Positions 2,656 to 18,735 of a stretch of 21,071 nt of DNA are shown in pieces. A model generated the notes under the pieces. The model searched no databases. It saw nothing but the letters and a program-made list of their open reading frames with translations, and was not told the origin of the DNA. The DNA is taken from the IMG/VR virus record IMGVR_UViG_2740892258_000010. One strand, written 5' to 3'. The DNA comes from a virus. Lineage: Duplodnaviria; Heunggongvirae; Uroviricota; Caudoviricetes. Made by a program: the position numbers and the translations under genes. Position 1 is the first letter of the stretch, and every line of letters begins with the position of its first letter.

Positions 2656-2665
2656 TCAGTGGTTG

Positions 2666-3012: not shown

Positions 3013-3689
3013 CGCCATTGCTCTCCAAATACAAAACCAATTTCAGCCAGTGCTTCGTCCATTTTTTCGATGAACTCCGGCACCATCTCGTCAAAACTCG
3101 CCATGTACTTTTCATCCCGCTCAACCACGACATAATGCAGGCCTTCACGCTTCATTCGTGGGTCATAGTTGGCAAAGTACCAGGCATCTTTTCGTGTCAC
3201 CCACATGCTGTACTGCACCTGGGCCATGTAAGCCGACTTTATGGCCTCGAAACCACCGAGCCGGAACTTCATGAAATCCCGGGAGGTAAACGGGCATTTC
3301 AGCTCAAGGCCATTGCCGTCACTGCATAAACCATCGGGAGAGCAGGCGGTGCGCATACTTTCGTCGCGATAGATGATCGGGGATTCAGTAACATTCACGC
3401 CGGAAGTGAATTCAAACAGGGTTCTGGCGTCGTTCTCGTACTGTTTTCCCCACGCCAGCGCCTTAGCATTAACTTCCGGAGCCACACCGGTGCAAACCTC
3501 AGCCAGCAGGGTGTGGAAGTAGGACATTTTCATGTCAGGCCACTTCTTTCCTGAGCGGGGCTTTGCTATCACGTTGTGAACTTCTGAAGCGGTGATGACG
3601 CCGAGCCGTAATTTGTGCCATGCATCATCCCCCTGTTCGACAGCTCTCACGTCGATCCCGGTACGCTGCAGGATAATGTCCGGTGTCAT
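3009..3689 (-). CDS. exo: Lambda exonuclease (Red-alpha)
   Basis: 226-aa translation matches lambda Exo essentially end to end ([40 protein letters not shown]...GFVFGEQWR). 4-nt overlap with bet. Confidence 0.95.
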
Positions 3690-4471
3690 GCTGCCACCTT
3701 CTGCTCAGTGGCTTTCTGTTTCAGGAATCCAAGAGCTTTCACTGCTTCGGCCTGTGTCAGTTCTGACGATGCGCGAATGTCGCGGCGAAATATCTGGGAA
3801 CAGAGCGGCAATAAGTCGTCATCCCATGTTTTGTCCAGGGCAATCAGCAGAGTGTTAATCTCCTGCATGGTTTCATCGTTAACCGGAGTGATGTCGCGTT
3901 CCGGCTGACGTTCTGCAGTGTATGCGGTATTTTCGACAATGCGCTCGGCTTCATCCTTGTCATAGATACCAGCAAATCCGAAGGCCAGACGGGCACACTG
4001 AATCATGGCTTTATGCCGTAACATCCGTTTGGGATGCGACTGCCACGGCCCCGTGATTTCTCTGCCTTCGCGGGTTTTGAATGGTTCGCGGCGGCATTCA
4101 TCCATCCACTCGGTAACGCAGATCGGATGATTGCGGTCTTTGCGGTAAATCCGGCATGTACATGATTCATTGTCCTGCTCAAAGTCCATACCATCAAACT
4201 GCTGGTTTTCATTGATGATGCGGGACCAGCCATCAACGCCCACCACCGGAACAATGCCGTTCTGCTTATCAGGGAAGGCGTAAATTTCTTTCGTCCACGG
4301 ATTAAGGCCGTACTGGTTGGCGACGATCAACAATGCGATGAACTGCGCATCGCTGGCATCACCTTTAAATGCCGTCTGGCGAAGAGTGGTGATCAGTTCC
4401 TGTGGGTCGACAGAATCCATGCCGACACGTTCAGCCAGCTTCCCTGCCAGCGTTGCGAGTGCTGTACTCAT
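3686..4471 (-). CDS. bet: Recombination protein Bet (Red-beta)
   Basis: 261-aa translation matches lambda Bet ([66 protein letters not shown]...). Confidence 0.95.
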
Positions 4472-4476
4472 CCGTT

Positions 4477-4773
4477 TTATACCTCTGAATCAATATCAGC
4501 CTGATGGTGAGCAATGGTTTCAACTATGTACCGGATGTGTTCTGCCATGCGCTCCTGAAACTCAACATCGTCATCAAACGCACGGGTAATGGCTTTTTTG
4601 CTGGCCCCGTGGCGTTGTAAATGATCGATGCATAGCGATTCAAACAGGTGCTGGGGCAGGCCTTTTTCCATGTCGTCTGCCAGTTCTGCCTCTTTCTCTT
4701 CACGGGCGATCTGCTGGTAGTGACGCGCCCAGCTCTGAGCCTCAAGACGATCCTGAATGTAATAAGCGTTCAT
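4477..4773 (-). CDS. gam: Gam, RecBCD inhibitor (98-aa short form only)
   Basis: 98-aa ORF matches the lambda Gam core ([21 protein letters not shown]...DIDSEV). The upstream ATG that gives the 138-aa form in lambda ([10 protein letters not shown]...) is at 4892-4894 but is out of frame with the core here. Confidence 0.9.
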
Positions 4774-4848
4774 GGCTGAACTCCTGAAAATGGCTGTGAA
4801 AATATCGCCCGCGAAATGCCAGGCTGATTAGGAAAACAGGAAAGGGGG

Positions 4849-4992
4849 TTAGTGAATGCTTTTGCTTGATCTCAGTTTCAGTATTAATATCCATTTTTTA
4901 TAAGCGTCGACGGCCTCACGAAACATCTTTTCATCGCCAATAAAAGTGGCGATAGTGAATTTAGTCTGGATAGCCATAATTGTTTGATCCAT
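4849..4992 (-). CDS. kil: Kil (host-killing/FtsZ-inhibiting protein)
   Basis: Last 47 codons of the 89-aa ORF 4849..5118 read [47 protein letters not shown], which is lambda Kil with one substitution. Start taken at this Met. Confidence 0.85.
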
Positions 4993-5125
4993 TTTTTGGG
5001 ACTCCTGGCTGATTAAGTATGTCGATAAGGCGTTTCCATCCGTCACGTAATTTACGGGTGATTCGTTCAAGTAAAGATTCGGAAGGGCAGCCAGCAACAG
5101 GCCACCCTGCAATGGCATATTGCAT
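4961..5125 (-). CDS. cIII: CIII (FtsH inhibitor, stabiliser of CII)
   Basis: Not in the ORF track (54 aa). Manual translation gives [54 protein letters not shown], matching lambda CIII. 3' end overlaps the kil start as in lambda. Confidence 0.85.
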   Translation of the reverse strand: MQYAIAGWPVAGCPSESLLERITRKLRDGWKRLIDILNQPGVPKNGSNNYGYPD

Positions 5126-5197
5126 GGTGTGCTCCTTATTTATACATAACGAAAAACGCCTCGAGTGAAGCGTAATTGGTATGCGGTAACGCCGCGC

Positions 5198-5566
5198 TCA
5201 GGCGGCCTTGATAGTCATATCATCTGAATCAAATATTCCTGATGTATCGATATCGGTAATTCTTATTCCTTCACTACCATCCATTGGAGGCCATCCTTCC
5301 TGACCATTTCCATCATTCCAGTCGAACTCACACACAACACCATATGCATTTAAGTCGCTTGAAATTGCTATAAGCAGAGCATGTTGCGCCAGCATGATTA
5401 ATACAGCATTTAATACAGAGCCGTGTTTATTGAGTCGGTATTCAGAGTCTGACCAGAAATTATTAATCTGGTGAAGTTTTTCCTCTGTCATTACGTCATG
5501 GTCAATTTCAATTTCTATTGATGCTTTCCAGTCGTAATCAATGATGTATTTTTTGATGTTTGACAT
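5198..5566 (-). CDS. ea10: Ea10-like early protein
   Basis: 122-aa ORF between cIII and ral, the position of lambda ea10. Identity by synteny and recollection. Confidence 0.6.
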   Translation of the reverse strand: MSNIKKYIIDYDWKASIEIEIDHDVMTEEKLHQINNFWSDSEYRLNKHGSVLNAVLIMLAQHALLIAISSDLNAYGVVCEFDWNDGNGQEGWPPMDGSEGIRITDIDTSGIFDSDDMTIKAA

Positions 5567-5586
5567 CTATTCATATCCTCATAGAT

Positions 5587-5612
5587 AAAAAATCGCCCTC
5601 ACACTGGAGGGC
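5587..5612 (-). terminator. Intrinsic terminator between ral and ea10 (leftward transcript)
   Basis: On the minus strand: GCCCTC-cagtgt-GAGGGC stem-loop (plus coordinates 5595-5612) followed by a T6 run (plus-strand A-run 5587-5592). Confidence 0.6.
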
Positions 5613-5748
5613 AAAGAAGATTTCCAATAATCAGAACAAGTCGGCTCCTGTTTAGTTACGAGCGACATTGCTCCGTGTATTCACTCGTTGGAATGAATAC
5701 ACAGTGCAGTGTTTATTCTGTTATTTATGCCAAAAATAAAGGCCACTA

Positions 5749-5949
5749 TCAGGCAGCTTTGTTGTTCTGTTTACCAAGTTCTCTGGCAATCATTGCCGTC
5801 GTTCGTATTGCCCATTTATCGACATATTTCCCATCTTCCATTACAGGAAACATTTCTTCAGGCTTAACCATGCATTCCGATTGCAGCTTGCATCCATTGC
5901 ATCGTTTGAATTGTCCACACCATTGATTTGTATCAATAGTCGTAGTCAT
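5749..5949 (-). CDS. ral: Ral, restriction-alleviation protein
   Basis: 66-aa translation (MTTTIDTNQWCGQFKRCNGCKLQSECMVKPEEMFPVMEDGKYVDKWAIRTTAMIARELGKQNNKAA) matches lambda Ral. Confidence 0.9.
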   Translation of the reverse strand: MTTTIDTNQWCGQFKRCNGCKLQSECMVKPEEMFPVMEDGKYVDKWAIRTTAMIARELGKQNNKAA

Positions 5950-6019
5950 ACGGATAGTCCTGGTATTGTTCCATCACATCTTGAGGATGCTCTTCGAACT
6001 CTTCAAATTCTTCTTCCAT
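5933..6019 (-). CDS. Small acidic protein, lambda orf28 equivalent
   Basis: Not in the ORF track. Manual translation gives MEEEFEEFEEHPQDVMEQYQDYPYDYDY (28 aa). Overlaps the ral start by 17 nt. Confidence 0.55.
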   Translation of the reverse strand: MEEEFEEFEEHPQDVMEQYQDYPYDYDY

Positions 6020-6162
6020 ATATCACCTTAAATAGTGGATTGCGGTAGTAAAGATTGTGCCTGTCTTTTAACCACATCAGGCTCGGTGGTTCTCGTGTAC
6101 CCCTACAACGAGAAATCGGATAAACTCTATTCACCCCTACAGAGAGCAAAAGAGAAACGCCG

Positions 6163-6744
6163 ATGAACAACTCATGGTGGCAGGAACTAATGCATTTTTT
6201 CCTGCAAGGAATGACACTTAAACAGTTGATTCATATGCTAATCATCCTGATCATATTGATTATTGTTATGCCGGTAAGCGTAAAAGAATGGATAAACCTG
6301 CATAATCCAGAAATCCTTCCTCATTACTGGATGTATTACATCCTGTTGTTTTGCGTTAGCTATGTGCTTAACGGCGTTGTTAATTCCGCTTATCACGCTG
6401 TGACTGAAAGAATTGAGGTATTCGCTGCTCAGAAGCGCAAATCTAAAGAAGAAAAATATGTGCAAGATTTGTTTGATTCGTTAACTCTTGGAGAAAGAGC
6501 GTATTTGGCATTCGCTGTAGCCGCTAATAACCAGCTACAAACGGAAAAGGGCGCTCATGAATCAATTTCATTGCTCAAAAAAGGACTCCTCGTTCGAAGG
6601 CCTCCTGCTGTTGGATATCCTGATACCGACCGTTTCGTTATCCCTGAAAGCTATAGACATGAGTGCTACATTAGGTTTGCCGGGAAGGCAGACAGCCTTA
6701 TGGATGAACTTATCGCTCAGGATAAGCATGGCAAAAACAAGTAA
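6163..6744 (+). CDS. sieB: Superinfection exclusion protein B
   Basis: 193-aa ORF with a hydrophobic N-terminal region (MLIILIILIIVMPV..., YILLFCVSYVLNGVV...). Matches lambda SieB by recollection. Convergent with N. Confidence 0.85.
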   Translation: MNNSWWQELMHFFLQGMTLKQLIHMLIILIILIIVMPVSVKEWINLHNPEILPHYWMYYILLFCVSYVLNGVVNSAYHAVTERIEVFAAQKRKSKEEKYVQDLFDSLTLGERAYLAFAVAANNQLQTEKGAHESISLLKKGLLVRRPPAVGYPDTDRFVIPESYRHECYIRFAGKADSLMDELIAQDKHGKNK

Positions 6745-6760
6745 TTAGCAAATGAATTTA

Positions 6761-7033
6761 TCATCTCGCCGTCAGTTGTTTTGATTTCCGGTAGCCTGCC
6801 GCGTAAAGAGCTACGTTCGGAAGACAAGTTGAACCTTCATATTTTCTGGTCAACGTTGTCAGAGTTATCACTTCTGCTCTCATTGCTGGTTTGAGCTTGC
6901 ATTGCAAGACCACTCGTGAAGGGGTTGGCCTGTGTAGCTTGTCGGAGCTGATCGCCTCCTGACTTTGCAGATTTGCGCGACGAGCTCTACGGCGAGAAGC
7001 TGCGGTGCCTTTAAATTCTGTTTTTCTGGACAT
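6761..7033 (-). CDS. N: N-type transcription antiterminator (P22/21-like, not lambda N)
   Basis: Start placed at the internal Met (MSRKTEFKGTAASRRRARRA...), which has a GGAGG ribosome-binding site; the ORF track extends 24 codons further upstream. Arginine-rich motif near the N-terminus. C-terminus (NVALYAAGYRKSKQLTAR) resembles the P22 gene-24 antiterminator. Confidence 0.75.
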   Translation of the reverse strand: MSRKTEFKGTAASRRRARRANLQSQEAISSDKLHRPTPSRVVLQCKLKPAMRAEVITLTTLTRKYEGSTCLPNVALYAAGYRKSKQLTAR

Positions 7034-7131
7034 GGATTCCTCCCGAATAAACTTTGGCGATGCAATCTCGAAGCTCCTCCTGAGACGGTTGCTTCGGCAT
7101 TGCATCCCACAGCTTATGTGGTTGGGTGATC

Positions 7132-7177
7132 TGGCTTTTCAGCCACGTAGTCGAGAGTCGACGTTGTTTAAAGAGCC
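7132..7177 (-). promoter_or_regulatory. Putative nutL (boxA plus boxB hairpin)
   Basis: Minus strand reads GGCTCTTT (boxA-like) ... CTACG-TGGCT-GAAA-AGCCA (boxB-like stem-loop). It aligns almost base for base with the site downstream of cro at 9813-9858. Confidence 0.5.
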
Positions 7178-7222
7178 TGCCAGTCTGTTCCATTTGGCTT
7201 CCAGCGTCCTGCTGACGGTTAA

Positions 7223-7251
7223 ATAGTACGATATGTACTTTACAAGATCAA
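7223..7251 (-). promoter_or_regulatory. Putative pL with overlapping operator
   Basis: Minus strand: TTGATC, 17-nt spacer, TACTAT. The spacer contains AAAGTACATAT, the same 11-mer found in the spacer of the putative pR. Confidence 0.45.
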
Positions 7252-7440
7252 TACAATTTGTTGTAAGTTGGCGTGGTTTTTTATAACGCTTTGTATTTAA
7301 TAGTGTTGTTTTTTAGCGTGGATGTATTGCCTCGGCGATGTAAGGAGAGATCAGAATTGCGTGGTTTAGTGGGTTGCATCTATTTATTTTTCAATAAATA
7401 TAATTGGTTATGTGTTTTTAGGTGGGCGAACGTGAGGCAA

Positions 7441-7464
7441 AGAAAACCCGGCGCTGAGGCCGGG
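7441..7464 (-). terminator. Intrinsic terminator ending the cI operon
   Basis: Minus strand: CCCGGC-ctcagc-GCCGGG stem-loop followed by TTTTCT, beginning 5 nt after the stop of the 250-aa gene. Confidence 0.65.
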
Positions 7465-7469
7465 TTGTA

Positions 7470-8222
7470 TTATGCTGCAAGTCTCTTAACCCAAGTCTCT
7501 CTTTTGGAGAATGGTAGAACTTGGCTTGATTCATGGAAGAGTAAGGAGAGTTGTTGCATTTGATCACCAATTGCTTCGCTGTCTATAACAACAAATCTGT
7601 TGTTATACTCCTCACTTGAAGCTTTAAGATCAATTAGTTTCCCAAGCAATGAGTAAGCACTATTCCAGCTTCCTCCGTGTTTCACGCTTGATGTAAAAAC
7701 GTATTTAGGTATGTCGGTTTTTATTGTTACAGGGACGGTAATTTGATGTCCACTCAAGCCATATACGTTTTCACGAAGAGAAAGTGCGTCTCTAAGCTCT
7801 GTGTGATATAGATAATCAATAACCATACTTTCAAACTTTTCAGCTTGAACTGGCTGATACCAGTCTAACGACAAAGTTGATGCGAGTATACCAGCTCTAA
7901 TTATGTTCGATGTAATCGCACCGACATCCTTTTCTGTTGCCCAAGCAATGATTTCTCCTCGAGCATTGAGTTCTGCGCCTTCTTTAAGCAGTAATTGTCG
8001 TATCTCATCAAGTCGTTTTTTGGTAAGCGAGATCCCTCTTGCCTCCATATTCATTAAGGCATCGCATCTGTCACTAACTAAATACCTACCATTGACTTCA
8101 CGGATAAAGGCACCGACATGCTCTCCATCATCACAGTAAGTGAATGGACTGATAATTCTCAAGGTCTTGCCTATTGGATGGCATTCGAAACCTAGTTGTG
8201 AGATCACTGTTGAGCACATCAT
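7470..8222 (-). CDS. Unknown protein B of the cI-linked two-gene cassette (candidate exclusion/defence component)
   Basis: 250-aa ORF. No recognisable motif and no obvious transmembrane segment. Start ATG overlaps the stop of the upstream gene (ATGA). Visibly AT-rich compared with the flanking lambda genes. Confidence 0.7.
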   Translation of the reverse strand: MMCSTVISQLGFECHPIGKTLRIISPFTYCDDGEHVGAFIREVNGRYLVSDRCDALMNMEARGISLTKKRLDEIRQLLLKEGAELNARGEIIAWATEKDVGAITSNIIRAGILASTLSLDWYQPVQAEKFESMVIDYLYHTELRDALSLRENVYGLSGHQITVPVTIKTDIPKYVFTSSVKHGGSWNSAYSLLGKLIDLKASSEEYNNRFVVIDSEAIGDQMQQLSLLFHESSQVLPFSKRETWVKRLAA

Positions 8223-8776
8223 ATTCCAAACCCCATTTGCCCCGACTCATCTTCAAGCGGTAAAGGTATTCTCCCAGAGTAAGTTATGTTCAGATGTTTA
8301 CAGAAGTAATTCCAATACCCTACCAGGTCATCTGGGTTTATGTCATCTTCGATTGGAAACGCTATTCTATCACTATAGTATCCAGCTTCTTCATAGTATA
8401 CATGGTAGTGAGCACCGTAAATGATATCTTGGTACTTCGGATGATCGACCTTGTAACTATTCGTGTGTTTGTCAAAGTGATAGGTATCTACCGCGAAAAC
8501 CCTCTTGTTATGATAGAAAGCAATAATATTTATTTTAGGGTAAGAAATCGGGTCATCAGGTTCTGAATCCTGATCTGGTTTCCATTTCAGTTCAAACTTT
8601 AGCCCTTGTATAGGTATACAATCCTCATCCAAGGGGATGATATGGGCTTGTAGCCACATATCAGAGCGACTTGGTTTCTGTTTCCATTTAACGCCAGAAA
8701 AGTTAACTATTTTTTTACAATAAAGTACTTTATCAACTTCTACTTGGCTTGGCTGATAATCATCTATTTTTGCCAA
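8219..8776 (-). CDS. Unknown protein A of the cI-linked two-gene cassette (candidate exclusion/defence component)
   Basis: 185-aa ORF starting 39 nt after the cI stop with no intervening terminator. The annotated start is TTG; the first in-frame ATG is at codon 40, so the true start is uncertain. Tyr/His/Asp-rich; no motif recognised. Confidence 0.6.
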   Translation of the reverse strand: MAKIDDYQPSQVEVDKVLYCKKIVNFSGVKWKQKPSRSDMWLQAHIIPLDEDCIPIQGLKFELKWKPDQDSEPDDPISYPKINIIAFYHNKRVFAVDTYHFDKHTNSYKVDHPKYQDIIYGAHYHVYYEEAGYYSDRIAFPIEDDINPDDLVGYWNYFCKHLNITYSGRIPLPLEDESGQMGFGI

Positions 8777-8815
8777 TGTTTACCGCCCTGTAAATTGTAG
8801 ATAAAAGTGGTTTCA

Positions 8816-9475
8816 TCACCCAAACGTCTCTTCAGGCCATTGGCTGGCGATAACTTTCCCCACAACGGAACAACTCTCATTGCATGGGATCATTGGGTAT
8901 TGTGGGTTTAGTGGCTGTAGAAACACCTGACCGCTATCCCTGATCAGTTTCTTGAAGGTAAATTCATCACCACCAAGTCTGGCTATGCAGAAATCGCCGG
9001 GCTCAACAGCTTGCTCAGGGTCAACCAGAATTAACATCCCGTCAGGAAAGCTGGGTTTGGAACCTGTTGGTGCGGTCATTGAGTTACCTTCAACCTCAAG
9101 CCAGAATGCAGAGTCACTGGCTTTTTTGGTTGTGCTTACCAATCTCTCCGCATCGCCTTTGGTAAAGGTTCTGAGTTCTGGAGAGAACATCCCAGCCTGA
9201 ACATGAGAAAAAACAGGGTACTCATATTGTTTTTTAACTGGGGCCGATGAGTATTCGCCAACAGGTGAAAATGTCCCGTCGTGGTTGAATGATATGTTAT
9301 CAATACCAAGGTATTTAAACACCACACCAATATCACTAAGAGATGGATGACGAGATCCGCGCAACCAGTGTCCAATCCCACCCTGCGTCATACCTAGCTC
9401 TTCGGCTAACTTCTCTTGAGTTATGCCGAGCTCTTTCATTCTGGATCTAGCCAGTTCATACCATTTCATTTTCAT
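8816..9475 (-). CDS. cI: CI-type prophage repressor (HTH plus S24 LexA-like autocleavage domain)
   Basis: N-terminal HTH ([20 protein letters not shown]). C-terminal domain has a Gly-Asn-Ser-Met segment and a downstream FKKL lysine consistent with the Ser/Lys dyad. Divergent from cro. Start ambiguous among 9517, 9475 and 9469. Confidence 0.85.
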
Positions 9476-9530
9476 GTCCTTATTATTACGCTCTGTACTG
9501 GAACCATCCATGCACAATGTGTATTTTTAC

Positions 9531-9559
9531 TTGTATTCGCAAAGTACATATTGTATTTT
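9531..9559 (+). promoter_or_regulatory. Putative pR with overlapping operator
   Basis: TTGTAT, 17-nt spacer, TATTTT. The spacer contains AAAGTACATAT (9541-9551), identical to the pL spacer motif. TGTATT recurs three times across 9520-9557. Confidence 0.4.
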
Positions 9560-9586
9560 TTTATTCGTGTTTACTATGGAGGGCAT

Positions 9587-9802
9587 ATGAGCAACCTACG
9601 AAAATATCGAGAGTCACTGAATATCTCTCAAACAACACTTGCTAAGGCAGTTGGATGCACACAGGGAGCTATCGGACATTGGGAATCTGGTCGTCGCTTC
9701 CCAGACCTTAAAACATGCCGTGCTCTTGTTGCGTGCCTAAACAAGTTAGGCGCAAAAGTCAGTCTTGATGACGTGTTCCCGCCGGAACACAAAGCCGCTT
9801 AA
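9587..9802 (+). CDS. cro: Cro-type repressor (HTH)
   Basis: 71-aa protein (MSNLRKYRESLNISQTTLAKAVGCTQGAIGHWESGRRF...) with GGAGGG 4 nt upstream of the ATG. Divergent from cI. The ORF track extends it artificially to 9416. Confidence 0.8.
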   Translation: MSNLRKYRESLNISQTTLAKAVGCTQGAIGHWESGRRFPDLKTCRALVACLNKLGAKVSLDDVFPPEHKAA

Positions 9803-9812
9803 TAAGCGGATC

Positions 9813-9858
9813 CGCTCTTTGTAACAACGGACATTCGTCCTACGTCGCTGAAAAGCGA
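9813..9858 (+). promoter_or_regulatory. Putative nutR (boxA plus boxB hairpin)
   Basis: CGCTCTTT (boxA-like) ... CTACG-TCGCT-GAAA-AGCGA (boxB-like), just downstream of cro. Same spacing and loop as the nutL candidate. Confidence 0.5.
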
Positions 9859-9943
9859 GTTCCAAGATATCTGACCAACTAAGGCCATATGCGTTTCCAC
9901 GCATACCTTTCAACTAACTATTCACTATTGGAAATCTTAAGAA

Positions 9944-10240
9944 ATGGAAAGAACAAGTTACAGCAAACTATCACAGCGTGACGTTGATCGCGCAGAAACA
10001 GATTTACTTATCAATCTGTCAGCTATTACCCAGCGCGGTCTGGCAAAGATGATTGGCTGTCATGAATCGAAGATAAGCAGAACGGACTGGAGATTTATTG
10101 CTTCGGTCTTGTGTGCTTTCGGAATGGCATCAGACATCAGTCCGATTAGCAGGGCTTTTAAGTATGCGCTTGATGGACTCACCAATAAAAAACGCCCGGC
10201 GGCAACCGAGCGTTCTGAACAAATCCAGATGGAATTCTGA
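9944..10240 (+). CDS. cII: CII transcriptional activator (hybrid: non-lambda N-terminus, lambda C-terminus)
   Basis: 98-aa ORF. The last ~19 residues (LTNKKRPAATERSEQIQMEF) match lambda CII; the N-terminal two thirds do not. Confidence 0.85.
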   Translation: MERTSYSKLSQRDVDRAETDLLINLSAITQRGLAKMIGCHESKISRTDWRFIASVLCAFGMASDISPISRAFKYALDGLTNKKRPAATERSEQIQMEF

Positions 10241-10272
10241 GGTCATTACTGGATCAATCCACAGGAGTCATT

Positions 10273-11177
10273 ATGACAAATACAGCAAAAATACTCAACT
10301 TCTGCAGAGGTAACTTTGCCAAACAGGAGCGTAATGTGGCAGATCTCGATGATGGTTACGCCAGACTATCAAATATGCTGCTTGAGGCTTATTCAGGCGC
10401 AGATCTGACCAAGCGACAGTTTAAAGTGCTGCTTGCCATTCTGCGTAAAACCTATGGATGGAATAAACCAATGGACAGAATCACCGATTCTCAACTTAGC
10501 GAGATTACAAAGTTACCCGTCAAACGGTGCAATGAAGCCAAGTTAGAACTCGTCAGAATGAATATTATCAAGCAGCAAGGCGGCATGTTTGGACCAAATA
10601 AAAACATCTCAGAATGGTGTATCCCTCAAAACGAGGGAAAATCCCCTAAAACAATAAAAACATCTCAGAATGGTGTATCCCTCAAAACGAGGGAAAATCC
10701 CCTAAAACGAGGGATAAAACATCCCTCAAATTGGGGGATTGCTATCCCTCAAAACAGGGGGACACAAAAGACACTATTACAAAAGAAAAAAGAAAAGATT
10801 ATTCGTCAGAGAATTCTGGCGAATCCTCTGACCAGCCAGAAAACGACCTTTCTGTGGTGAAACCGGATGCTGCAATTCAGAGCGGCAGCAAGTGGGGGAC
10901 AGCAGAAGACCTGACCGCCGCAGAATGGATGTTTGACATGGTGAAGACCATCGCGCCATCAGCCAGAAAACCGAATTTTGCAGGGTGGGCTAACGATATC
11001 CGCCTGATGCGTGAACGTGACGGACGTAACCATCGCGACATGTGTGTACTGTTCCGCTGGGCATGCCAGGACAACTTCTGGTCCGGTAACGTGCTGAGCC
11101 CGGCCAAACTCCGCGACAAGTGGACCCAGCTCGAAATCAACCGTAACAAGCAACAGGCAGGCTTTAGCTTAATTTAA
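10273..11177 (+). pseudogene. O: Replication initiator O, frameshifted in the ori iterons and altered at the C-terminus
   Basis: N-terminal ORF (10273..10860) and C-terminal ORF (10731..11177) both match lambda O but are in different frames. The frame change coincides with a 56-bp tandem duplication. The C-terminus ends ...NRNKQQAGFSLI instead of continuing as in lambda. Confidence 0.85.
10597..10708. repeat. Perfect 56-bp tandem duplication within the ori iteron array
   Basis: 10597-10652 and 10653-10708 are identical by direct reading (aataaaaacatctcagaatggtgtatccctcaaaacgagggaaaatcccctaaaac). 56 is not a multiple of 3. Confidence 0.9.
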
Positions 11178-11350
11178 ACAAACTAAAAATAACATCGGAA
11201 ATTATTAACTGGTTATTTGTTGAAGTTTTCTTATGCATTTGTGGTGGTGTTTTGAACACTCGGTGGCATTCTCACAAATATCATTTAGTAGTTTACGTAC
11301 GTAAAAAATTGGTTATGCTGTTAAGAGTGGTTACTTCGTCACACAGCTTA

Positions 11351-11380
11351 AACCCGCCGTCGAGCGGGTTTTTCCATTTT
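11351..11380 (+). terminator. Intrinsic terminator, tR'-like, upstream of the lysis cassette
   Basis: ACCCGC-cgtcga-GCGGGT stem-loop followed by TTTTTCCATTTTTT. A promoter-like region lies about 40-60 nt upstream (TATGCT preceded by TTGG). Confidence 0.55.
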
Positions 11381-11511
11381 TTGAGTCTCGATATTAGCTG
11401 ATAACCCAATACCTGAGTTATTCACTGACTCCGAATCTGTTACGTTTCTGCCTTTATTGCGATACGTAGTATCCCCTTAATTTACACCCGCTTTGTCTGC
11501 GAGGTGGGGTT

Positions 11512-11727
11512 ATGAAATCCATGGATAAGTTAACAACGGGTGTCGCCTATGGTACCTCAGCAGGTAGTGCCGGGTACTGGTTTTTACAGTTGCTCGATAA
11601 AGTCACGCCCTCACAGTGGGCGGCAATAGGTGTGCTGGGTAGCCTGGTATTTGGCCTGCTGACGTACCTGACAAACCTTTATTTCAAGATTAAAGAAGAT
11701 AAGCGCAAGGCTGCGAGAGGTGAATAA
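11512..11727 (+). CDS. S: Class II holin (pinholin), phage-21 S-like
   Basis: 71-aa ORF with dual-start motif MKSMDK, two hydrophobic segments and a basic C-terminus. Close to phage 21 S by recollection. Confidence 0.85.
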
Positions 11728-12224
11728 TGCCTCCATCATTACGAAAAGCCGTTGCTGCTGCTATTGGTGGCGGAGCAATTGCTATAGCATCAGTGTTAAT
11801 CACTGGCCCAAGTGGTAACGATGGTCTGGAAGGTGTCAGCTACATACCATACAAAGATATTGTTGGTGTATGGACTGTATGTCACGGGCATACAGGAAAA
11901 GACATCATGCTCGGTAAAACGTATACCAAAGCAGAATGCAAAGCCCTCCTGAATAAAGACCTTGCCACGGTCGCCAGACAAATTAACCCGTACATCAAAG
12001 TCGATATACCGGAAACAATGCGCGGCGCTCTTTACTCATTCGTTTACAACGTGGGTGCTGGCAATTTCAGAACATCGACGCTTCTTCGCAAAATAAACCA
12101 GGGCGATATCAAAGGCGCATGTGATCAGCTACGTCGCTGGACATATGCTGGCGGTAAGCAATGGAAAGGTCTCATGACTCGTCGTGAGATTGAGCGTGAA
12201 ATCTGTTTGTGGGGTCAGCAATGA
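11727..12224 (+). CDS. R: SAR endolysin (lysozyme with N-terminal signal-anchor-release domain)
   Basis: 165-aa ORF with a Gly/Ala-rich weakly hydrophobic N-terminus ([20 protein letters not shown]) typical of SAR endolysins. Start overlaps the holin stop. Confidence 0.85.
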
Positions 12225-12439
12225 ACAGAGTAACCGCGATTATCTCCGCTCTGGTTATCTGCATCATCGTCTGCCTGTCATGGGCTGTTAATCATTACCG
12301 TGATAACGCCATTACCTACAAAGCCCAGCGCGACAAAAATGCCAGAGAACTGACGCTGGCGAACGCGGTAATTACTGACATACAGATGCGTCAGCGTGAT
12401 GTTGCTGCGCTCGATGCAAAATACACGAAGGAGTTAGCT
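12221..12439 (+). pseudogene. Rz: Rz (i-spanin) 5' fragment
   Basis: [49 protein letters not shown]...DAKYTKELA matches the lambda Rz N-terminal half; similarity stops at about 12439 although the ORF runs on to 12580. Confidence 0.7.
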
Positions 12440-13087
12440 TCATTCTCATTGTTGCTATATCAGCCATCACTGAAAGCCTCAACGCATAATCGGCTGCTTA
12501 GGATAGCCAACCTCAGGTGCTGCATTTGCATAGTGCAATCTCCCCTTACTTATCCGGAGGCAATTGCAATATCTCTGTGAACTTACACTGTGTATCATCA
12601 GGTTATTATGTGAGCTGGTAAATCAGATTTTGCATGGACTGAAATGATGCTGTTATTTAGGGACAAAGAACCGACTTTTTCTCTTGCCTCCTCGCCAGTA
12701 ATGATTAATGGGAATGCTTCCTCTGGGGAGGAGGACAGTAGAAAAAAGAACCCGCCAGCAAAAATATTGGGGATGAACAGCTTTCGCTACTCAGGTTGTT
12801 GGCGGGTAAATTTCCTCATGAAATAAGAATGCTACGCGCTCTTTTTAATGAAAATGATAATCACTGTCAACTAATTGCGCATATTTTCTTCATACATGAT
12901 TGATAAAGGTGATTCAGACTATCAGTGTTTTGCTGATGGCCTTTTTGTCTTTAGAAAACACCAGCCAGGCTGGTTGGTTCAGTTAAGCTTTCAGCTTCGA
13001 GAATTTTATGAAAGCTATTGATTTGTTAAAATAAATCACAGTCTGGTGACTGCAAAAGTTAAACGAGAAATCAAAAGGTGGCCCAAA

Positions 13088-13320
13088 TCTGAAAATGAAG
13101 CTCTGCGTGATGATGTTGCCGCTGGTCGTCGTCGGTTGCATATCAGATCAATCTGCCCATCCCCGCGTGAAGCCACCACCGCCTCGGGCGTGGATAATGC
13201 AGCCCCCCCGACTGGCAGACATCGCTGAACAGGATTATTTCCTCCCTCAGAGAGAGGCTTATCACTATGCAAAAACAACTGTAGGGAGCCCAGAAGTATA
13301 TTAATGAACAGTGCAGATGA
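13088..13320 (+). pseudogene. Rz 3' fragment with embedded Rz1 (o-spanin) remnant, both damaged
   Basis: Rz-frame homology resumes (ENEALRDDVAAGRRRLHI...) and an Rz1-like lipoprotein start is present (MKLCVMMLPLVVVGC). A frameshift relative to lambda lies in the C-run near 13200-13210, and an in-frame TAG precedes the Rz C-terminal codons. Confidence 0.6.
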
Positions 13321-13341
13321 GCTCCCCATATCGATGGGCAA

Positions 13342-13635
13342 CTATTGTGAGCAATATACCCGGGCTTCCAGCGGAGTATAGATGCCAAAAGTGATAAAAC
13401 CGAGCAATCCATTTACGAATGTTTGCTGAGTTTCTGTTTTAACAACATTTTCTGCACCGCCACAAATTTTGGCTGCATCAACAGTTTTCTCTTGTCCAAT
13501 TCCCGAAACGAAGAAATGATGAGTGATGGTTTCCTTTGGTGTTACTGCTGTCGGTTTGTTTCCAACAGTAAACGTCTGTTGAGCACATCCTGTAATAAGC
13601 ATTGCCAGAGCGGCAGAAAATAACATTTTTTTCAT
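13342..13635 (-). CDS. bor: Bor lipoprotein (serum-resistance, lysogenic conversion)
   Basis: 97-aa protein from the second Met (MKKMLFSAALAMLITGCAQQTFTV...ARVYCSQ) with a lipobox (LITGC). Matches lambda Bor. The ORF track starts 5 codons earlier. Confidence 0.9.
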   Translation of the reverse strand: MKKMLFSAALAMLITGCAQQTFTVGNKPTAVTPKETITHHFFVSGIGQEKTVDAAKICGGAENVVKTETQQTFVNGLLGFITFGIYTPLEARVYCSQ

Positions 13636-13810
13636 CTTATTATCCTGCATTGTTAAAAACGGCAGAATCCTATGTGATAATAATTAAACGATAGCTAAAT
13701 GAACGAAAATTAAAAGTATAAAAGTGGTTACTCAGACTTGGTTGATCCTACCCACGTAATATGGACACAGGCCTAAGCGAGGTTCTTGTTTTCAAATTGT
13801 TCCGGACTGA

Positions 13811-14635
13811 GGCCGCCACACCAACTGTGCCGCCGCCACCGATCCGAAACACGAATTTAATTACCAGCAGGCGGTTGAGCGCCTTCCTGGTGAAGATCCG
13901 GCTCAGCTGAACGACCCGGCCTACCGTCGTCTGCGTATCATTACCGATAACCTCAAACAGGAAGAGCACGCCATTGTCCAGGTGGAAGAAATGCAGGCGG
14001 TGAATGCCGTGCTGTATGGCAAATACACCATGGAAGGGGATCAGTTTGATACTGTCGAGGTGGATTTCGGGCGCTCTGAAGGAAATAACATTGAGCAGGC
14101 TGACGGTAAAAAATGGTCTGAGCAGGACCGTGATACGTTTGATCCGACGCATGATATTGACCTCTACTGCGATCAGGCCAGCGGCCTTGTGAATATCGCC
14201 ATTATGGACGGTACGGTCTGGCGTCTGCTGAATGGCTTTAAGCTGTTCCGCGAAAAACTGGATACCCGTCGCGGCTCAAATTCACAACTCGAAACGGCAG
14301 TGAAAGATCTGGGCGCAGTGGTGTCCTTCAAGGGGTATTACGGCGATCTGGCCATTGTGGTGGCGAAAACGTCTTATATAGCAGAAGACGGTATCGAAAA
14401 ACGTTATCTTCCAGATGGCATGCTGGTTCTGGGGAATACTGCTGCAGATGGGATCCGTTGTTACGGTGCCATTCAGGATGCTCAGGCGTTGTCCGAAGGT
14501 GTGGTGGCCTCTTCCCGTTATCCGAAACACTGGCTGACGGTAGGGGATCCCGCCCGTGAATTTACCATGACGCAGTCCGCGCCGCTGATGGTGTTGCCGG
14601 ACCCGGATGAGTTTGTGGTGGTACAGGTGAAATAA
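13811..14635 (+). pseudogene. E: Major capsid protein E, 3' fragment (5'-truncated)
   Basis: Open frame from the stop at 13808-13810 to 14635 matches the lambda E C-terminal region (...AYRRLRIITDN..VEEMQAVNAVLYGKYTM...LTVGDPAREFTMTQSAPLM...). There is no N-terminal region and no ATG; the first candidate start is a GTG at 13982. Confidence 0.8.
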
Positions 14636-14644
14636 TCCGTGAGC

Positions 14645-14672
14645 GGGGGCGAAATGCCCCCGTGTCTTTTTT
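14645..14672 (+). terminator. Intrinsic terminator downstream of E
   Basis: GGGGGC-gaaat-GCCCCC stem-loop followed by GTGTCTTTTTT. Confidence 0.6.
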
Positions 14673-14686
14673 CACAGGGGGCTGAT

Positions 14687-15061
14687 ATGGCAACGAAAGA
14701 GCAAAATCTGAAACGGCTTGATGAACTGGCCCTGATTCTGGGGCGTGAGCCGGATATATCCGGGAGTGCCGCAGAGATAGCGCAGCGGGTGGCAGAATGG
14801 GAAGAGGAAATGCAGTCATCCGGCGATGATGTACAGGTTATGAATATGGATATCCGGGAGCGGGAAACCGCGGCTCATGATGTTCGTGAGGAAACATCCG
14901 GCGCGTTAACGCGCATCAGAGTTCTGACCTGCCTCCATCTCTGTGGCGTTGATGGTGAAACGGGGGAATCCGTTGAGCTTGCGGATGTTGGTCGGGTGAT
15001 TCTGATTATGTCCTCAGATGCAAAAACACACGTTGATGGTGGAATGGCTGTTTATGCGTGA
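14687..15061 (+). CDS. FI-position head/DNA-packaging protein (non-lambda allele)
   Basis: 124-aa acidic protein (MATKEQNLKRLDELALILGRE...) between E and FII, with an AGGGGG ribosome-binding site. Assigned by synteny. Stop overlaps the FII start. Confidence 0.55.
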   Translation: MATKEQNLKRLDELALILGREPDISGSAAEIAQRVAEWEEEMQSSGDDVQVMNMDIRERETAAHDVREETSGALTRIRVLTCLHLCGVDGETGESVELADVGRVILIMSSDAKTHVDGGMAVYA

Positions 15062-15407
15062 TTTTCAGAATGCCTTTGATGCCGCCCTTGCCGGGGTGGA
15101 CAGTACGATTGTTGAAGTGATGGGCATCAGTGCGCAGTTCACCTCCGGTGCACAGCGTGGCGGCGAGGTTCATGGCGTTTTTGACGATCCGGAGTCGCTG
15201 GGTTTTGCCAGTAGTGGGATCCGTATTGAAGGAAGTAACCCGTCATTATTTGTGCTTACGGATACGGTTTGTGCTGTACGGCGTGGTGACACGCTGACCA
15301 TTAACGGCGAGATGTTCTGGGTGGACCGTGTTTCTCCGGATGACGGAGGGAGTTGTTATCTCTGGCTCAACCGGGGGCAACCACCTGCCGCCAGCCGTCG
15401 CCGCTGA
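15054..15407 (+). CDS. FII: Head-tail joining protein FII
   Basis: 117-aa protein from MRDFQNAFDAALAG... to ...WVDRVSPDDGGSCYLWLNRGQPPAASRRR, matching lambda FII. Confidence 0.85.
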   Translation: MRDFQNAFDAALAGVDSTIVEVMGISAQFTSGAQRGGEVHGVFDDPESLGFASSGIRIEGSNPSLFVLTDTVCAVRRGDTLTINGEMFWVDRVSPDDGGSCYLWLNRGQPPAASRRR

Positions 15408-15418
15408 AAGGGGGATGT

Positions 15419-15694
15419 ATGGCCATAAAAGGTCTTGAGCAGGCCGTTGAAAACCTCAGCCGTATCAGCAAAACGGCAGTGCCTGGTGCCGCCGCAATGG
15501 CCATTAACCGCGTTGCTTCATCCGCGATATCGCAGTCGGCGTCACTGGTTGCCCGTGAGACAAAGGTACGCCGGAAACTGGTAAAGGAAAGGGCCAGGCT
15601 GAAAAGGGCCCGTGGTGGCTGGTCTGCCGGGGGGCGATTCATAAGTTCCGCTGTGTGCCGCATCTCACCGGGCGGCGCTTTGAGCACGGGGTGA
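15419..15694 (+). pseudogene. Z: Tail protein Z, truncated after about 64 codons and fused out of frame to K
   Basis: MAIKGLEQAVENLSRISKTAVPGAAAMAINRVASSAISQSASLVARETKVRRKLVKERARLKRA matches the lambda Z N-terminus. After 15610 the frame reads through K-derived DNA out of frame to a stop. Confidence 0.75.
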
Positions 15695-16101
15695 CGGACT
15701 GTTACACGCTGTTCCGGGACGCTTACCATCTGGCGGGGATTGAGATGCCGGACTTTCATCGTGAGGATGACTGGTGGCGTAACGGCCAGAATCTCTATCT
15801 TGATAATCTGGAGGCCACAGGGCTGTATCAGGTGCCGTTGTCAGCGGCGCAGCCGGGCGATGTGCTGCTGTGCTGCTTTGGTTCATCGGTGCCGAATCAT
15901 GCCGCTATTTACTGTGGTGACGGCGAGCTGCTGCACCATATTCCTGAACAACTGAGTAAACGAGAGAGGTATACCGACAAAGAGAGGTATACCGACAAAT
16001 GGCAGCGACGCACACACTCCCTCTGGCGTCACCGGGCATGGCGCGCATCTGCCTTTACGGGGATTTACAACGATTTGGCCGCCGCATCGACCTTCGTGTG
16101 A
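15610..16101 (+). pseudogene. K: Tail assembly protein K, 3' half only (NlpC/P60-like region)
   Basis: Frame matches the lambda K C-terminal half (PWWLVCRG.IHKFRCVPHLTGRRFEHGVTDCYTLFRDAYHLAGIEMPDF...). No N-terminal half or start codon; first in-frame GTG is at 15655. Contains an extra in-frame 18-bp repeat. Confidence 0.7.
15963..15998. repeat. Perfect 18-bp tandem duplication (agagaggtataccgacaa x2)
   Basis: Direct reading. Adds ERYTDK in the K frame and duplicates the GAGAGG ribosome-binding site immediately upstream of the gene I start codon (15999). Confidence 0.85.
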
Positions 16102-16670
16102 AAACGGGGGCTGAAGCCATCCGCGCACTGGCCACACAGCTCCCGGTGTTTCGTCAGAAACTGAGCGACGGCTGGTATCAGGTACGGATTGCCGGGCGGG
16201 ACGTCAGCACGTCCGGGTTAACGGCGCAGTTACATGAGACTCTGCCTGATGGCGCTGTGATTCATATTGTTCCCAGAGTCGCCGGGGCCAAGTCAGGTGG
16301 CGTATTCCAGATTGTCCTGGGGGCTGCCGCCATTGCCGGATCATTCTTTACCGCCGGAGCCACCCTTGCAGCATGGGGGGCAGCCATTGGGGCCGGTGGT
16401 ATGACCGGCATCCTGTTTTCTCTCGGTGCCAGTATGGTGCTCGGTGGTGTGGCGCAGATGCTGGCACCGAAAGCCAGAACTCCCCGTACACAGACAACGG
16501 ATAACGGCAAACAGAACACCTATTTCTCCTCACTGGATAACATGGTTGCCCAGGGCAATGTTCTGCCGGTTCTGTACGGTGAAATGCGCGTGGGGTCACG
16601 CGTGGTTTCTCAGGAGATCAGCACGGCAGACGAAGGGGATGGTGGTCAGGTTGTGGTGATTGGTCGCTGA
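15999..16670 (+). CDS. I: Tail assembly protein I
   Basis: 223-aa ORF (MAATHTLPLASPGMARICLYGDLQRFGRRIDLRVKTGAEAIRA...) matching lambda I. Start lies inside the K 3' end. Confidence 0.9.
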   Translation: MAATHTLPLASPGMARICLYGDLQRFGRRIDLRVKTGAEAIRALATQLPVFRQKLSDGWYQVRIAGRDVSTSGLTAQLHETLPDGAVIHIVPRVAGAKSGGVFQIVLGAAAIAGSFFTAGATLAAWGAAIGAGGMTGILFSLGASMVLGGVAQMLAPKARTPRTQTTDNGKQNTYFSSLDNMVAQGNVLPVLYGEMRVGSRVVSQEISTADEGDGGQVVVIGR

Positions 16671-16678
16671 TGCAAAAT

Positions 16679-16790
16679 GTTTTATGTGAAACCGCCTCCG
16701 GGCGGTTTTATCGTTTATGGAGCATGACGAATGGGTTTTATGTGAAACCGCCTCCGGGCGGTTTTATCGTTTATGGAGCATGACGAATGG
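16679..16790. repeat. Perfect 56-bp tandem duplication spanning the I-J intergenic hairpin and the J start
   Basis: 16679-16734 and 16735-16790 are identical. Each copy carries the AAACCGCC-tccg-GGCGGTTTT hairpin and ATGGGT. The first ATG opens only a 4-codon ORF; the second is the J start. Confidence 0.9.
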
Positions 16791-18677
16791 GTAAAGGCAG
16801 CAGTAAGGGGCATACCCCGCGCGAAGCGAAGGACAACCTGAAATCCACGCAGCTGCTGAGTGTGATTGATGCCATCAGCGAAGGGCCGGTTGAAGGTCCG
16901 GTGGATGGATTAAAAAGCGTGCTGCTGAACAGTACGCCGGTGCTGGACAGTGAGGGGAATACTATAACCCGCAGACGCGGCAATACAGCGGTATCTGGGA
17001 CGGAACGTTTAAGCCAGCATACAGCAACAACATGGCCTGGTGTCTGTGGGATATGCTGACCCATCCGCGCTACGGCATGGGGAAACGTCTTGGTGCGGCT
17101 ATGTCATCGGCCAGAATTGCGACCAGTCGGTGCCGGATGGCTTTGGTGGCACGGAACCGCGTATCACCTGTAATGCCTGGCTGACCACGCAGCGCAAGGC
17201 GTGGGATGTGCTCAGTGATTTCTGCTCGGCGATGCGCTGTATGCCGGTATGGAACGGGCAGACGCTGGGGCGCACTTTGACGGCGACCAGAGCGGCACGG
17301 TGAATGGTGTCACGCCGCCAGCGGTGCAGCACCTGACTGCCGAAGTCACCGCAGACAGCGGGGAATATCAGGTGCTGGCGCGCTGGGACACGCCGAAGGT
17401 GGTGAAGGGGGTGAGCTTTATGCTTCGCCTGACCGTGGCAGCGGATGACGGCAGTGAGCGGCTGGTCAGCACGGCCCGGACGACGGAAACCACATACCGC
17501 TTCATGTACTGGATAGCCGCCAGTATCAATATCAAACCGGGCCATGATTATTATTTTTACATCCGCAGTGTGAACACCGTTGGCAAATCGGCATTTGTGG
17601 AGGCTGTTGGCCAGCCGAGTGATGATGCATCCGGCTATCTGAATTTTTTCAAAGGAGAGATAGGGAAAACCCATCTGGCTCAGGAGTTGTGGACGCAGAT
17701 TGATAACGGTCAGCTTGCGCCTGACCTGGCTGAAATCAGGACGTCCATTACGGGTGTCAGCAATGAAATCACGCAGACCGTCAATAAGAAACTGGAAGAC
17801 CAGAGTGCAGCGATCCAGCAGATACAGAAGGTTCAGGTTGATACAAATAATAACCTGAACAGCATGTGGGCTGAAGCTGCAGCAGATGCAGGACGGACGC
17901 CTTTATATCGCGGGTATTGGTGCCGGTGTTGAGAATACTCCTGACGGTATGCAGAGTCAGGTGCTGCTGGCGGCGGACAGGATTGCGATGATTAATCCTG
18001 CGAATGGCAACACAAAGCCGATGTTTGTTGGGCAGGGCGATCAGATATTCATGAACGAAGTGTTCCTGAAATATCTGACGGCTCCCACCATTACCAGCGG
18101 TGGCAATCCCCCAACGTTTTCACTGACACCTGATGGTCGACTTTCTGCGAAAAATGCGGATATCAGCGGTAACGTGAACGCGAACTCCGGGACGCTCAAC
18201 AACGTCACGATTAATCAGAACTGTCGGATTCTGGGAAAACTGTCAGCTAACCAGATTGAAGGTGATATTGTCAAAACGGTGGGAAAAGCCTTTCCGAGAA
18301 ATGGCAGTTATGCCAGCGGTACAATAACGGTCACTGTGTACGATGACCAGGCTTTTGACCGTCAGATAGTAGTCCCCCCCGTTCTGTTTCGTGGGGGTAA
18401 GCATGAAAACTTCAACAGCAACAACCAACAGTCATACTGGTATTCAACCTGTAAGCTGCAGGTACTGAAGAACGGACAGGAAATCTTTCAGCAACCCGCG
18501 ACGGATGTCAGCAGGGTATTTTCATCAGTCATTGATATGCCTGCCGGACACGGCCATGTCACCCTGACTTTCAATGTTTCTTCATATGGTGCTAATAACT
18601 GGACGCCAACGACCAGTATCAGCGACCTTCTTGTTGTTGTGATGAAGAAATCTACAGCCGGTATCAGTATCAGTTGA
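16787..18677 (+). pseudogene. J: Central tail fibre / host-specificity protein J, broken into four ORFs
   Basis: Successive ORFs 16787..17059, 17040..17303, 17249..17932 and 17886..18677 all carry lambda-J-like segments in different frames, with large internal segments missing relative to lambda J (1132 aa). The C-terminal about 260 aa differ from the lambda LamB-binding end. Confidence 0.8.
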
Positions 18678-18696
18678 ATTTTATAACCCAGATACG

Positions 18697-18722: not shown

Positions 18723-18735
18723 TTGTGGAGTGAAT

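Follow-up and report, generated by a model that had tools for sequence, protein, structure and literature searches.

A deletion scar between O and the lysis genes of a cryptic lambdoid prophage of Escherichia coli, and the predicted control of S and R

Late control in the closest described systems

Among described systems, the DLP12 prophage of E. coli K-12 and phage PA-2 have the same S leader and the same types of holin and endolysin as the element analysed here. The gene order is quuD, nmpC, essD, rrrD and rzpD/rzoD in DLP12 and lc porin gene, S, R and Rz in PA-2, and the order Q, reverse-oriented porin gene, pR' and S is common to these phages and to the parent of our element. DLP12 keeps quuD, an IS5-disrupted porin gene and the full Rz/Rz1 pair but has lost its early region, whereas our window, a stretch of 21,071 nucleotides from IMG/VR record IMGVR_UViG_2740892258_000010, has kept the early region from int to a truncated O and has lost Q, the porin gene and Rz1. 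Stx phages with a Q933W-type Q (933W, Sakai Sp5 and Sp15, Ss-VASD) are arranged in the order Q, pR', StxS, tR' and stx. They share with the window and its parent the Q family, a pR' with a palindrome over its -35 element, the initially transcribed block, and a first hairpin with its T-run. In the Stx phages pR' comes directly after the stop codon of Q, and the StxS RNA is delimited by a second terminator at +258 (PMC7547250), whereas pR' lies 1.6 kb from Q in the parent of our element, and in the window there is no second terminator and S follows after 130 nt.

The late region of phage 21 runs Q21, pR', terminator, tRNAs, S21, R21 and Rz/Rz1. Its R is identical to that of the window and its S 86% identical, and O, cII and the early-arm DNA are 92% identical. 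The phage 21 record likewise annotates a terminator within ~50 nt of the pR' start, so the position of the hairpin described below is not odd. In the late DNA of the window, however, the match to phage 21 sets in no earlier than the start codon of S, and Q21, which has a binding element of its own, is a member of a different, unrelated family of Q proteins. Judged by this comparison, the window's prophage never had the promoter of phage 21 type, the tRNAs or Q21.

In lambda, N antitermination is processive through intrinsic and Rho-dependent terminators, and a low level of Q-independent late expression arises by read-through from pR. Deletions of the lambda nin region likewise remove terminators between pR and downstream genes, and it is by N-modified polymerase that the late genes are then expected to be reached. 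Phage with the classical nin5 deletion is viable and still has P and Q, whereas the deletion described here removed both and left a non-replicating, lysis-only remnant in which read-through is predicted.

The deletion junction and the broken O gene

Our sample was one short-read draft contig (CVOH01000061.1, 34.7 kb, of assembly GCA_001245225.1), which holds icd, the whole remnant and sit together; the expression state of the strain is predicted from sequence alone. In ST95-type E. coli, for example SF-468 and UTI89, a lambdoid prophage of 41.4 kb occupies the interval from icd to the sit operon. The 21-kb window matches it in eight collinear blocks, and the free phages PhiR63_2 and ev017 also align to the window (96% of the window covered, 99% identity). 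The window is therefore, by alignment, a heavily deleted derivative of an icd-integrated lambdoid prophage. Parental coordinates are given below on the SF-468 prophage (L001), and the gene content of the parent is that of its RefSeq annotation. The parent combines early genes of lambda type with a lysis cassette like that of phage 21 and a late control region of the DLP12/933W type. Head and tail genes have also been deleted, elsewhere in the window. Some of the apparent deletions in J fall in DNA that is only 90-94% identical, and these may be allelic differences rather than joins.

At the junction studied here (Table 1), the left arm, window 1-11161, corresponds to L001 2001-13105 with one mismatch in 11.1 kb and 56 extra bases, and the right arm, window 11162-12439, corresponds to L001 18397-19674 with one mismatch in 1.28 kb. 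The flanks are 99-100% identical to intact relatives (the SF-468/UTI89 prophage at icd, PhiR63_2 and ev017). The absent parental segment, L001 13106-18396, comprises 5,291 bp. It carried the last 21 codons of O, followed by P and ren, then a nin region of ninB, a methyltransferase gene, ninE, ninX, a DUF1364 remnant, rusA and ylcG, and finally quuD and, in reverse orientation, a porin gene of the ompC/nmpC/lc type together with the 239 bp that precede it on its upstream side. A first-pass annotation of this DNA, made from the sequence, had reported the whole block from P through ren and nin to Q as missing. The SF-468 alignment bears this out, and adds that the deletion also took the porin gene and its promoter region. 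That annotation had suggested mapping the breakpoint against lambda and phage 21; the right side, in the 350 bp kept before S, turned out to be late DNA of neither, but a leader of the DLP12/PA-2 type.

The two sides of the join share no microhomology. The join is present in none of 5,426 complete E. coli genomes, and the 35-mer across it was absent beyond the source contig in GTDB representatives, IMG/VR and JGI metagenomes; in an exact-protein index, two junction-specific ORFs occur on that single contig only. On this alignment evidence the interval marks where 5.3 kb were lost in a recent illegitimate deletion, an instance of ordinary prophage decay. The deletion is private to one draft genome, and it carries no sign of selection, because its flanks are essentially identical to the intact relative. 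In itself the finding is minor, another case of the deletional decay of a lambdoid prophage.

Table 1. Positions in the window of the features discussed in the text
Feature	Position	Strand	Basis
N antiterminator gene, 90 aa from ATG 7033, Arg-rich motif	6761-7033	-	PF25694, E=1e-32
nutR: boxA CGCTCTTTG (9813), boxB CGCTGAAAAGCG (9846-9857)	9813-9857	+	Inspection against lambda/21 nut architecture; between cro and cII
N-terminal O ORF, 195 aa, then out of frame	10273-10860	+	PF04492, E=1e-36 (O DNA-binding domain)
Perfect 56-bp tandem duplication in ori iterons	10597-10708	+	Exact repeat, period 56
C-terminal part of O in shifted frame, ending QQAG-FSLI	10731-11177	+	Translation; without last 21 parental residues
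Deletion junction	11161-11162		Parental L001 13105 joined to 18397; alignment to SF-468
Retained porin-S intergenic DNA upstream of pR'	11162-11291	+	No promoter-like site on either strand
pR' homologue	11292-11319	+	Homology to Ss-VASD 'putative late promoter PR'' and Sakai Sp5
Predicted start (~A11326) and initially transcribed region AGAGTGGTTACTTCGTCACACAGCTT	11326-11349	+	Invariant block in seven phages
Putative intrinsic terminator AAACCCGC-CGTCGA-GCGGGTTT + TTCCATTTTTT	11350-11381	+	Scan, fold, conservation; +25 to +56 of pR' transcript
130-nt leader with S ribosome-binding site	11382-11511	+	Scan
S, class II (pin)holin/antiholin, 71/68 aa, dual start	11512-11727	+	PF04971, E=2e-35
R, SAR endolysin, 165 aa	11727-12224	+	PF00959
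First 73 codons of Rz (i-spanin), fused to IS/plasmid-type DNA	12221-12439	+	Alignment, PF03245

The O gene is broken twice. It had been described as ending prematurely, and its frame does end at 11177, after QQAGFSLI, with the last 21 parental residues gone: the tail in the frame 10731-11177 translates to ...LEINRNKQQAGFSLI before the stop codon (also written ...NRNKQQAGFSLI), whereas the parental O, of 299 aa, continues ...QQAGVTACKPKLDLTNTDWIYGVDL to its stop, so that FSLI stands in the window in place of those residues. What the first-pass annotation overlooked is that O is also frameshifted by the 56-bp duplication (copies at 10597-10652 and 10653-10708), as translation and in-silico removal of the duplication both indicate, and it is because of this shift that the ORF started at the O ATG stops at 10860. 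The C-terminal product called by the gene caller, 106 aa, occurs on one contig only. The window thus holds neither an intact O ORF nor its P partner, and of the O/ori module only the N-terminal PF04492 domain is kept. From the sequence, O is doubly inactivated, by a frameshift and by the loss of 21 C-terminal codons, and P is gone. The element cannot replicate, because O is broken and P absent, nor can it build virions, because its head and tail genes are deleted.

The retained promoter, terminator and lysis genes

A promoter-like region had been noticed within about 130 bp of O, and this region does contain a homologue of a phage late promoter, recognised by homology and not by scanning. It begins 115 bp past the stop codon of the truncated O and consists of a -35 element (TTTACG, 11292-11297), a 16-nt spacer and a -10 element (TATGCT, 11314-11319, as against TATCAT in the Stx phages). 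A consensus scan of 10900-11800 called no sigma-70 site, and it missed the homologue because only 8 of the 12 consensus positions match, which is below the scan threshold. In ~280 Stx and related phages, the DNA that directly follows Q on its 3' side shows ~78% identity to window 11289-11373, and the matching stretch of Shigella phage Ss-VASD is annotated as 'putative late promoter PR''. The block from promoter to hairpin is 100% identical over ~120 bp in K-12 DLP12 and PA-2, and its flanks are ~90% identical. By homology, then, 11292-11319 would be the equivalent of the Stx-type pR', the late promoter of phages whose Q belongs to PF06530. The -35 element lies within a perfect palindrome, TTTACGTACGTAAA (11292-11305), which varies with the Q allele in an alignment of seven phages, and the initially transcribed block GTTAAGAGTGGTTAC is invariant in the alignments. 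We suggest the palindrome as a candidate Q-binding element. For the Q-binding element and the sigma-dependent promoter-proximal pause, this palindrome and the invariant +1 to +20 block are the only candidates.

In the StxS study the distance from the pR' start to the 3' end of tR' was mapped as 258 nt (PMC7547250). If transcription in Sakai Sp5 begins 7 nt past the -10 element, the U-tract of the second hairpin ends exactly 258 nt from that start; since this distance matches the mapped one, the predicted start in the window is placed near A11326. Two other positions for pR' were considered and dropped. The DNA directly after quuD (L001 16888-17076) holds only terminator-like hairpins and no good promoter, and the Stx homology puts the promoter 1.64 kb downstream. 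An ATGGCA-17-TATAAT site at L001 18367-18395, which would have made the hairpin a lambda-like tR' ~210 nt downstream, adjoins Q in no phage. The -10 element of this sigma-70-like site ends 1 nt before the right breakpoint; the site is conserved in K-12 and PA-2 and is deleted here.

For DLP12, an RpoE-dependent essD promoter has been described, with a regulatory region from -121 to +650 and a start taken from Rueggeberg et al. 2015 (PMC7918800). From the position of the forward primer, at L005 5754, the start would lie ~524 nt upstream of the essD ATG. This position adjoins the porin start codon, where a sigma-E-like GAACTA-16-TCACT motif is present, and it falls within the segment deleted here. 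This RpoE-type promoter and the pR' homologue appear to be different sites, and the assignment in the literature and the one by homology are not reconciled.

Downstream of the predicted start, at +25 to +46 of the pR' transcript, an 8-bp stem with five G-C pairs and a loop of 6 (11350-11371) is followed by TTCCATTTTT, the T-run reaching 11381. The U-tract is interrupted (TTTTTCCATTTTTT), and the hairpin folds with -12 kcal/mol (z = -3.0 against shuffles). A terminator scan gave this one site in 900 bp (10900-11800), where shuffled sequences would give 0.8, and the putative terminator is therefore credible because of its conservation across phages and not because of the scan: the hairpin is conserved in the seven phages, with a varying loop. 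An intrinsic terminator thus appears to stand between pR' and the first late gene. The homologous hairpin of the Sakai Stx phages lies at +25 to +51, and in these phages the transcript from pR' is reported to end at +258 (PMC7547250). Because the 258-nt StxS precursor extends beyond it, this homologue is evidently passed without Q, that is, read through in lysogens. The terminator had been called strong, at 11351-11380, by the first-pass annotation; the hairpin is confirmed, but with a Stx homologue that is read through its strength is not established. In the leader, 11382-11511, scanning found neither a second terminator nor a promoter-like site, and an Rfam search of 9500-12300 returned nothing credible, its weak Trp-leader match being the hairpin itself.

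The holin gene that was said to follow the terminator is a S21-type S. It begins MKSM, with the Met1/Met4 dual start of a class II holin, and R is identical to the SAR endolysin of phage 21 at 165 of 165 residues. Judged by their PF04971 and PF00959 matches and their likeness to phage 21, S and R are intact, as had been described. The cassette as a whole is incomplete, however. Homology of Rz to the parent stops at 12439, in codon 73, so that positions 1-46 of the 126 in the PF03245 profile are matched, and the Rz1 start, embedded at an offset of ~220 nt in DLP12, falls past the break. Rz is cut and the start of Rz1 is gone, and no complete Rz/Rz1 pair is left. The DNA past the break, 12438-13843, matches the iss region of ColV-type plasmids at 100% identity, and IS fragments flank it.

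Predicted control of S and R after the loss of Q

The Q of the parent is QuuD (PF06530), 83% identical to the Stx-phage Q, itself a member of PF06530. By sequence, the lost Q is of the QuuD/Q933W type and not of the lambda or phage 21 type. Its gene lies inside the deleted segment. In keeping with the earlier description, no Q-like ORF was found in 11150-11515, and the parent-mapping segments of the window contain no quuD.

The N/nut system, on the other hand, appears to be intact. The first-pass annotation had called the cassette orphaned, with S and R probably silent unless another antiterminator or read-through acts. The loss of Q is borne out but silence is not, because N, nutL and nutR are intact, pR has the same orientation as S and R, and the nin terminators are deleted; the other antiterminator is probably N, after induction. 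The N gene encodes an Arg-rich motif, and boxA and boxB are recognisable downstream of both pL and pR, at nutL (upstream of the N gene, ~7130-7180) and at nutR. The pR promoter lies 1.9 kb upstream of S. From cro to S, the terminator-like sites on the + strand are the hairpin and a weak candidate of 9 pairs in cII (10084-10109). Overall, the earlier interpretation is largely supported, with corrections on O, on Rz/Rz1, on the terminator, on the N route, on the type of DNA to the right of the join and on the loss of the porin gene.

By analogy with lambda, we suggest the following course of events. In the repressed lysogen pR' would fire constitutively, most of its RNAs would end at the hairpin as molecules of ~50 nt, and S and R would be off or very low owing to the loss of the cognate Q. 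After inactivation of CI, N would modify polymerase started at pR when it reaches nutR, 1.5 kb upstream. No nin-region terminators remain between nutR and S and R, and the modified polymerase would pass cII, the broken O, the scar and the hairpin and enter S and R. Such read-through is expected because N and its nut sites are intact, because the nin-region terminators are gone and because N is processive in lambda, and we therefore predict that transcription begun at pR and modified by N probably extends into S and R once the prophage is induced. The deletion would in effect have shifted the lysis genes from Q control to control by CI and N. To this explanation as a whole, which comprises the deletion scar, the retained pR', hairpin, S and R, the lost Q and the control of lysis by CI and N, we assign a probability of about 0.6.

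A bolder proposal builds on it, namely that a cryptic prophage has been rewired from Q to CI and N, and so to the SOS response, as a non-replicating, virion-less, lysis-only remnant that lyses its host soon after derepression. We consider this improbable. Were it true, and were the arrangement retained by selection for the release of cell contents or vesicles, the element would be a natural SOS-triggered autolysis switch. The point open to experiment is the fate of a lysis cassette that has a Q-dependent promoter and terminator but no Q, and that follows closely downstream of an intact pR/N/nutR unit.

The alternative that survives best, though we think it unlikely, is that without Q the genes S and R are silent in all conditions and await mutational decay. 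Q is gone, and so is every other candidate upstream promoter of the parent (the site at L001 18367-18395 and the inferred RpoE-type site); the terminator is kept, no promoter-like site lies between it and S, and the closest complete genome has a single quuD. Two points speak against permanent silence: N and its nut sites are intact and pR, upstream, reads toward S and R without another strong terminator on the way, and the homologous hairpin is read through in Stx lysogens. S and R carry no inactivating mutations, but this is uninformative, as the divergence from the parent is near zero.

A leaky terminator is somewhat less probable again. Here pR' would be constitutive and termination partial, with low, Q-independent expression of S and R even in the lysogen, much as the lysis module of DLP12 is reported to be expressed physiologically at a low level. 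Since in Sakai the hairpin's homologue must be passed without Q for the 258-nt StxS precursor to be made, some Q-independent transcription of S and R from pR' is possible, and 'off in the lysogen', as we have put it above, may be too strong. The interrupted U-tract (TTTTTCCATTTTTT) and the moderate stem energy (-12 kcal/mol) point the same way, as does DLP12, which has an identical promoter-hairpin block and whose cassette, according to published work, is expressed and influences the production of vesicles (PMC7918800). K-12 keeps quuD, however, so that expression in DLP12 is uninformative on independence from Q. Short terminated RNAs, moreover, would escape the StxS libraries, and unregulated expression of a pinholin and a SAR endolysin would be harmful.

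There is little chance that the retained pR' is served in trans, by a Q of QuuD/Q933W specificity that another prophage supplies upon its own induction. The window does keep the candidate Q-binding palindrome intact, and quuD-like genes are present in 3,436 of the 5,426 complete E. coli genomes, with up to five copies, but the median is one. In SF-468, the closest complete genome, and likewise in the other close relatives listed, the single quuD lies inside the same prophage, and for this reason a Q in trans is unlikely if the host resembles SF-468. It is just as doubtful that the joins were made by a short-read assembler, scaffolder or gap-closer and that the real prophage is intact: the single draft contig, a junction found nowhere else, several joins within 21 kb whose sequence hardly differs from that of an intact relative by point changes, and two joins that adjoin IS fragments would fit an artefact, but the join offers no shared k-mer or microhomology for a de Bruijn graph to collapse, a single contig of 34.7 kb spans icd, the 21-kb element in full and sit, and some of the J 'deletions' may be no more than alleles.

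Beyond this one element, homology to the mapped pR' of the Stx phages places the late promoter of the DLP12/PA-2-type phages, and the comparison shows that a reverse-oriented moron can lie between this promoter and its Q gene. The allele-specific palindromes over the -35 element are candidate Q-binding sites for the PF06530 family of Q proteins. Phage 82 was set aside as a model for this Q, Q82-like proteins being ~229 aa long and unrelated to QuuD. The 80 IMG/VR loci retrieved with QuuD were all relatives at 97-100% identity, and they had the same porin arrangement.

Q alleles and the pR' promoter

The -35 element of pR', the late promoter, is overlapped by a palindrome that differs with the Q allele (alignment A3, which covers the Stx-phage locus L009 and loci L091 and L093). 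With Q of the QuuD/Q933W type this palindrome reads TTTACG(TA/AT)CGTAAA, and that adjoining 1720a-02-type Q is GCGGTCCGC. The hairpin and the transcribed block downstream of it remain constant while the -35 palindrome varies with the Q allele. The allele-specific palindromes are candidate Q-binding elements of the PF06530 family.

The position of Q relative to pR' also differs between phage groups. The Q stop codon adjoins pR' in Stx phages, whereas in QuuD-type phages a reverse-oriented moron intervenes, as seen in the intact parental prophage (L001), in L092 and in 70+ IMG/VR loci (L011-L090). In most QuuD-type phages this moron is a 1.6-kb porin gene, and in PhiR55_1 it is a 148-aa ORF. The parent also carries a sigma-70-like ATGGCA-17-TATAAT site adjoining the right deletion breakpoint, with the perfect palindrome GCACTTATTTATAAGTGC in its spacer. 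The site is kept in K-12 DLP12 and PA-2 and is absent from the window.

Coordinates of features in the window and in comparison loci
Feature	Record	Position
int and xis, intact	window	1-1369
Terminator at cII end, minus strand	window	10189-10216
Perfect 56-bp tandem duplication	window	10597-10708
pR' -35 palindrome	window	11292-11305
pR' -35 palindrome	L009	704-717
Invariant block, +1 to +21 of pR' transcript	window	11326-11346
Putative CRP site	J02580	1067-1087
Hairpin and T7 run	L010 (Sakai Sp5)	770-796
Hairpin and T7 run	L009	761-783
Region with the moron between Q and pR'	L001	16887-18590
Region with the moron between Q and pR'	L092	305-900
Sigma-70-like site	L001	18367-18395
iss segment	window	12438-13843
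Left border of iss segment: IS 'integrase core' pseudogene fragment	window	
Right border of iss segment: ~100 bp of IS3 end, adjoining capsid gene E	window	
Remaining structural genes	window	13844-21071

The start of the late transcript

A putative CRP site annotated in the PA-2 GenBank record of 1986 (J02580) corresponds to the first 21 nucleotides of the pR' transcript. The GTGG...(T/C)CAC within this invariant stretch could bind a protein or fold as a small hairpin in the RNA. In Stx phages, a canonical-looking hairpin and T7 run lie at +25 to +51 of pR', but the StxS precursor, the pR' RNA of these phages, is reported to end at +258 (PMC7547250). Either this first terminator works poorly at such a short distance from the promoter or a very short RNA has been overlooked.

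Possible exchange, and decay

The 3' part of the parental Rz, together with Rz1, is replaced in the window by plasmid-type Rz'/Rz1'/iss alleles. The iss segment matches the iss region carried by ColV/ColBM-type virulence plasmids (e.g., pEC244_2) at 100% identity, suggesting either exchange between plasmid and prophage or an origin of the plasmid iss region in such a prophage.

Further structural genes have been lost relative to the parent, leaving only E'-FI-FII-Z', then K'-I-J, and then the tail-fibre genes; J has three internal gaps, within DNA of 90-94% identity. Virions cannot be made, because no terminase, portal or tail-tube gene is left in the window. The duplication, which lies in the ori iteron region of O, creates additional O-binding repeats and a frameshift in O, and it could have arisen through genuine slippage during replication, or the short reads could have been misassembled within the repeat. 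The strong terminator at the end of cII occupies the position of the oop RNA terminator in lambda.
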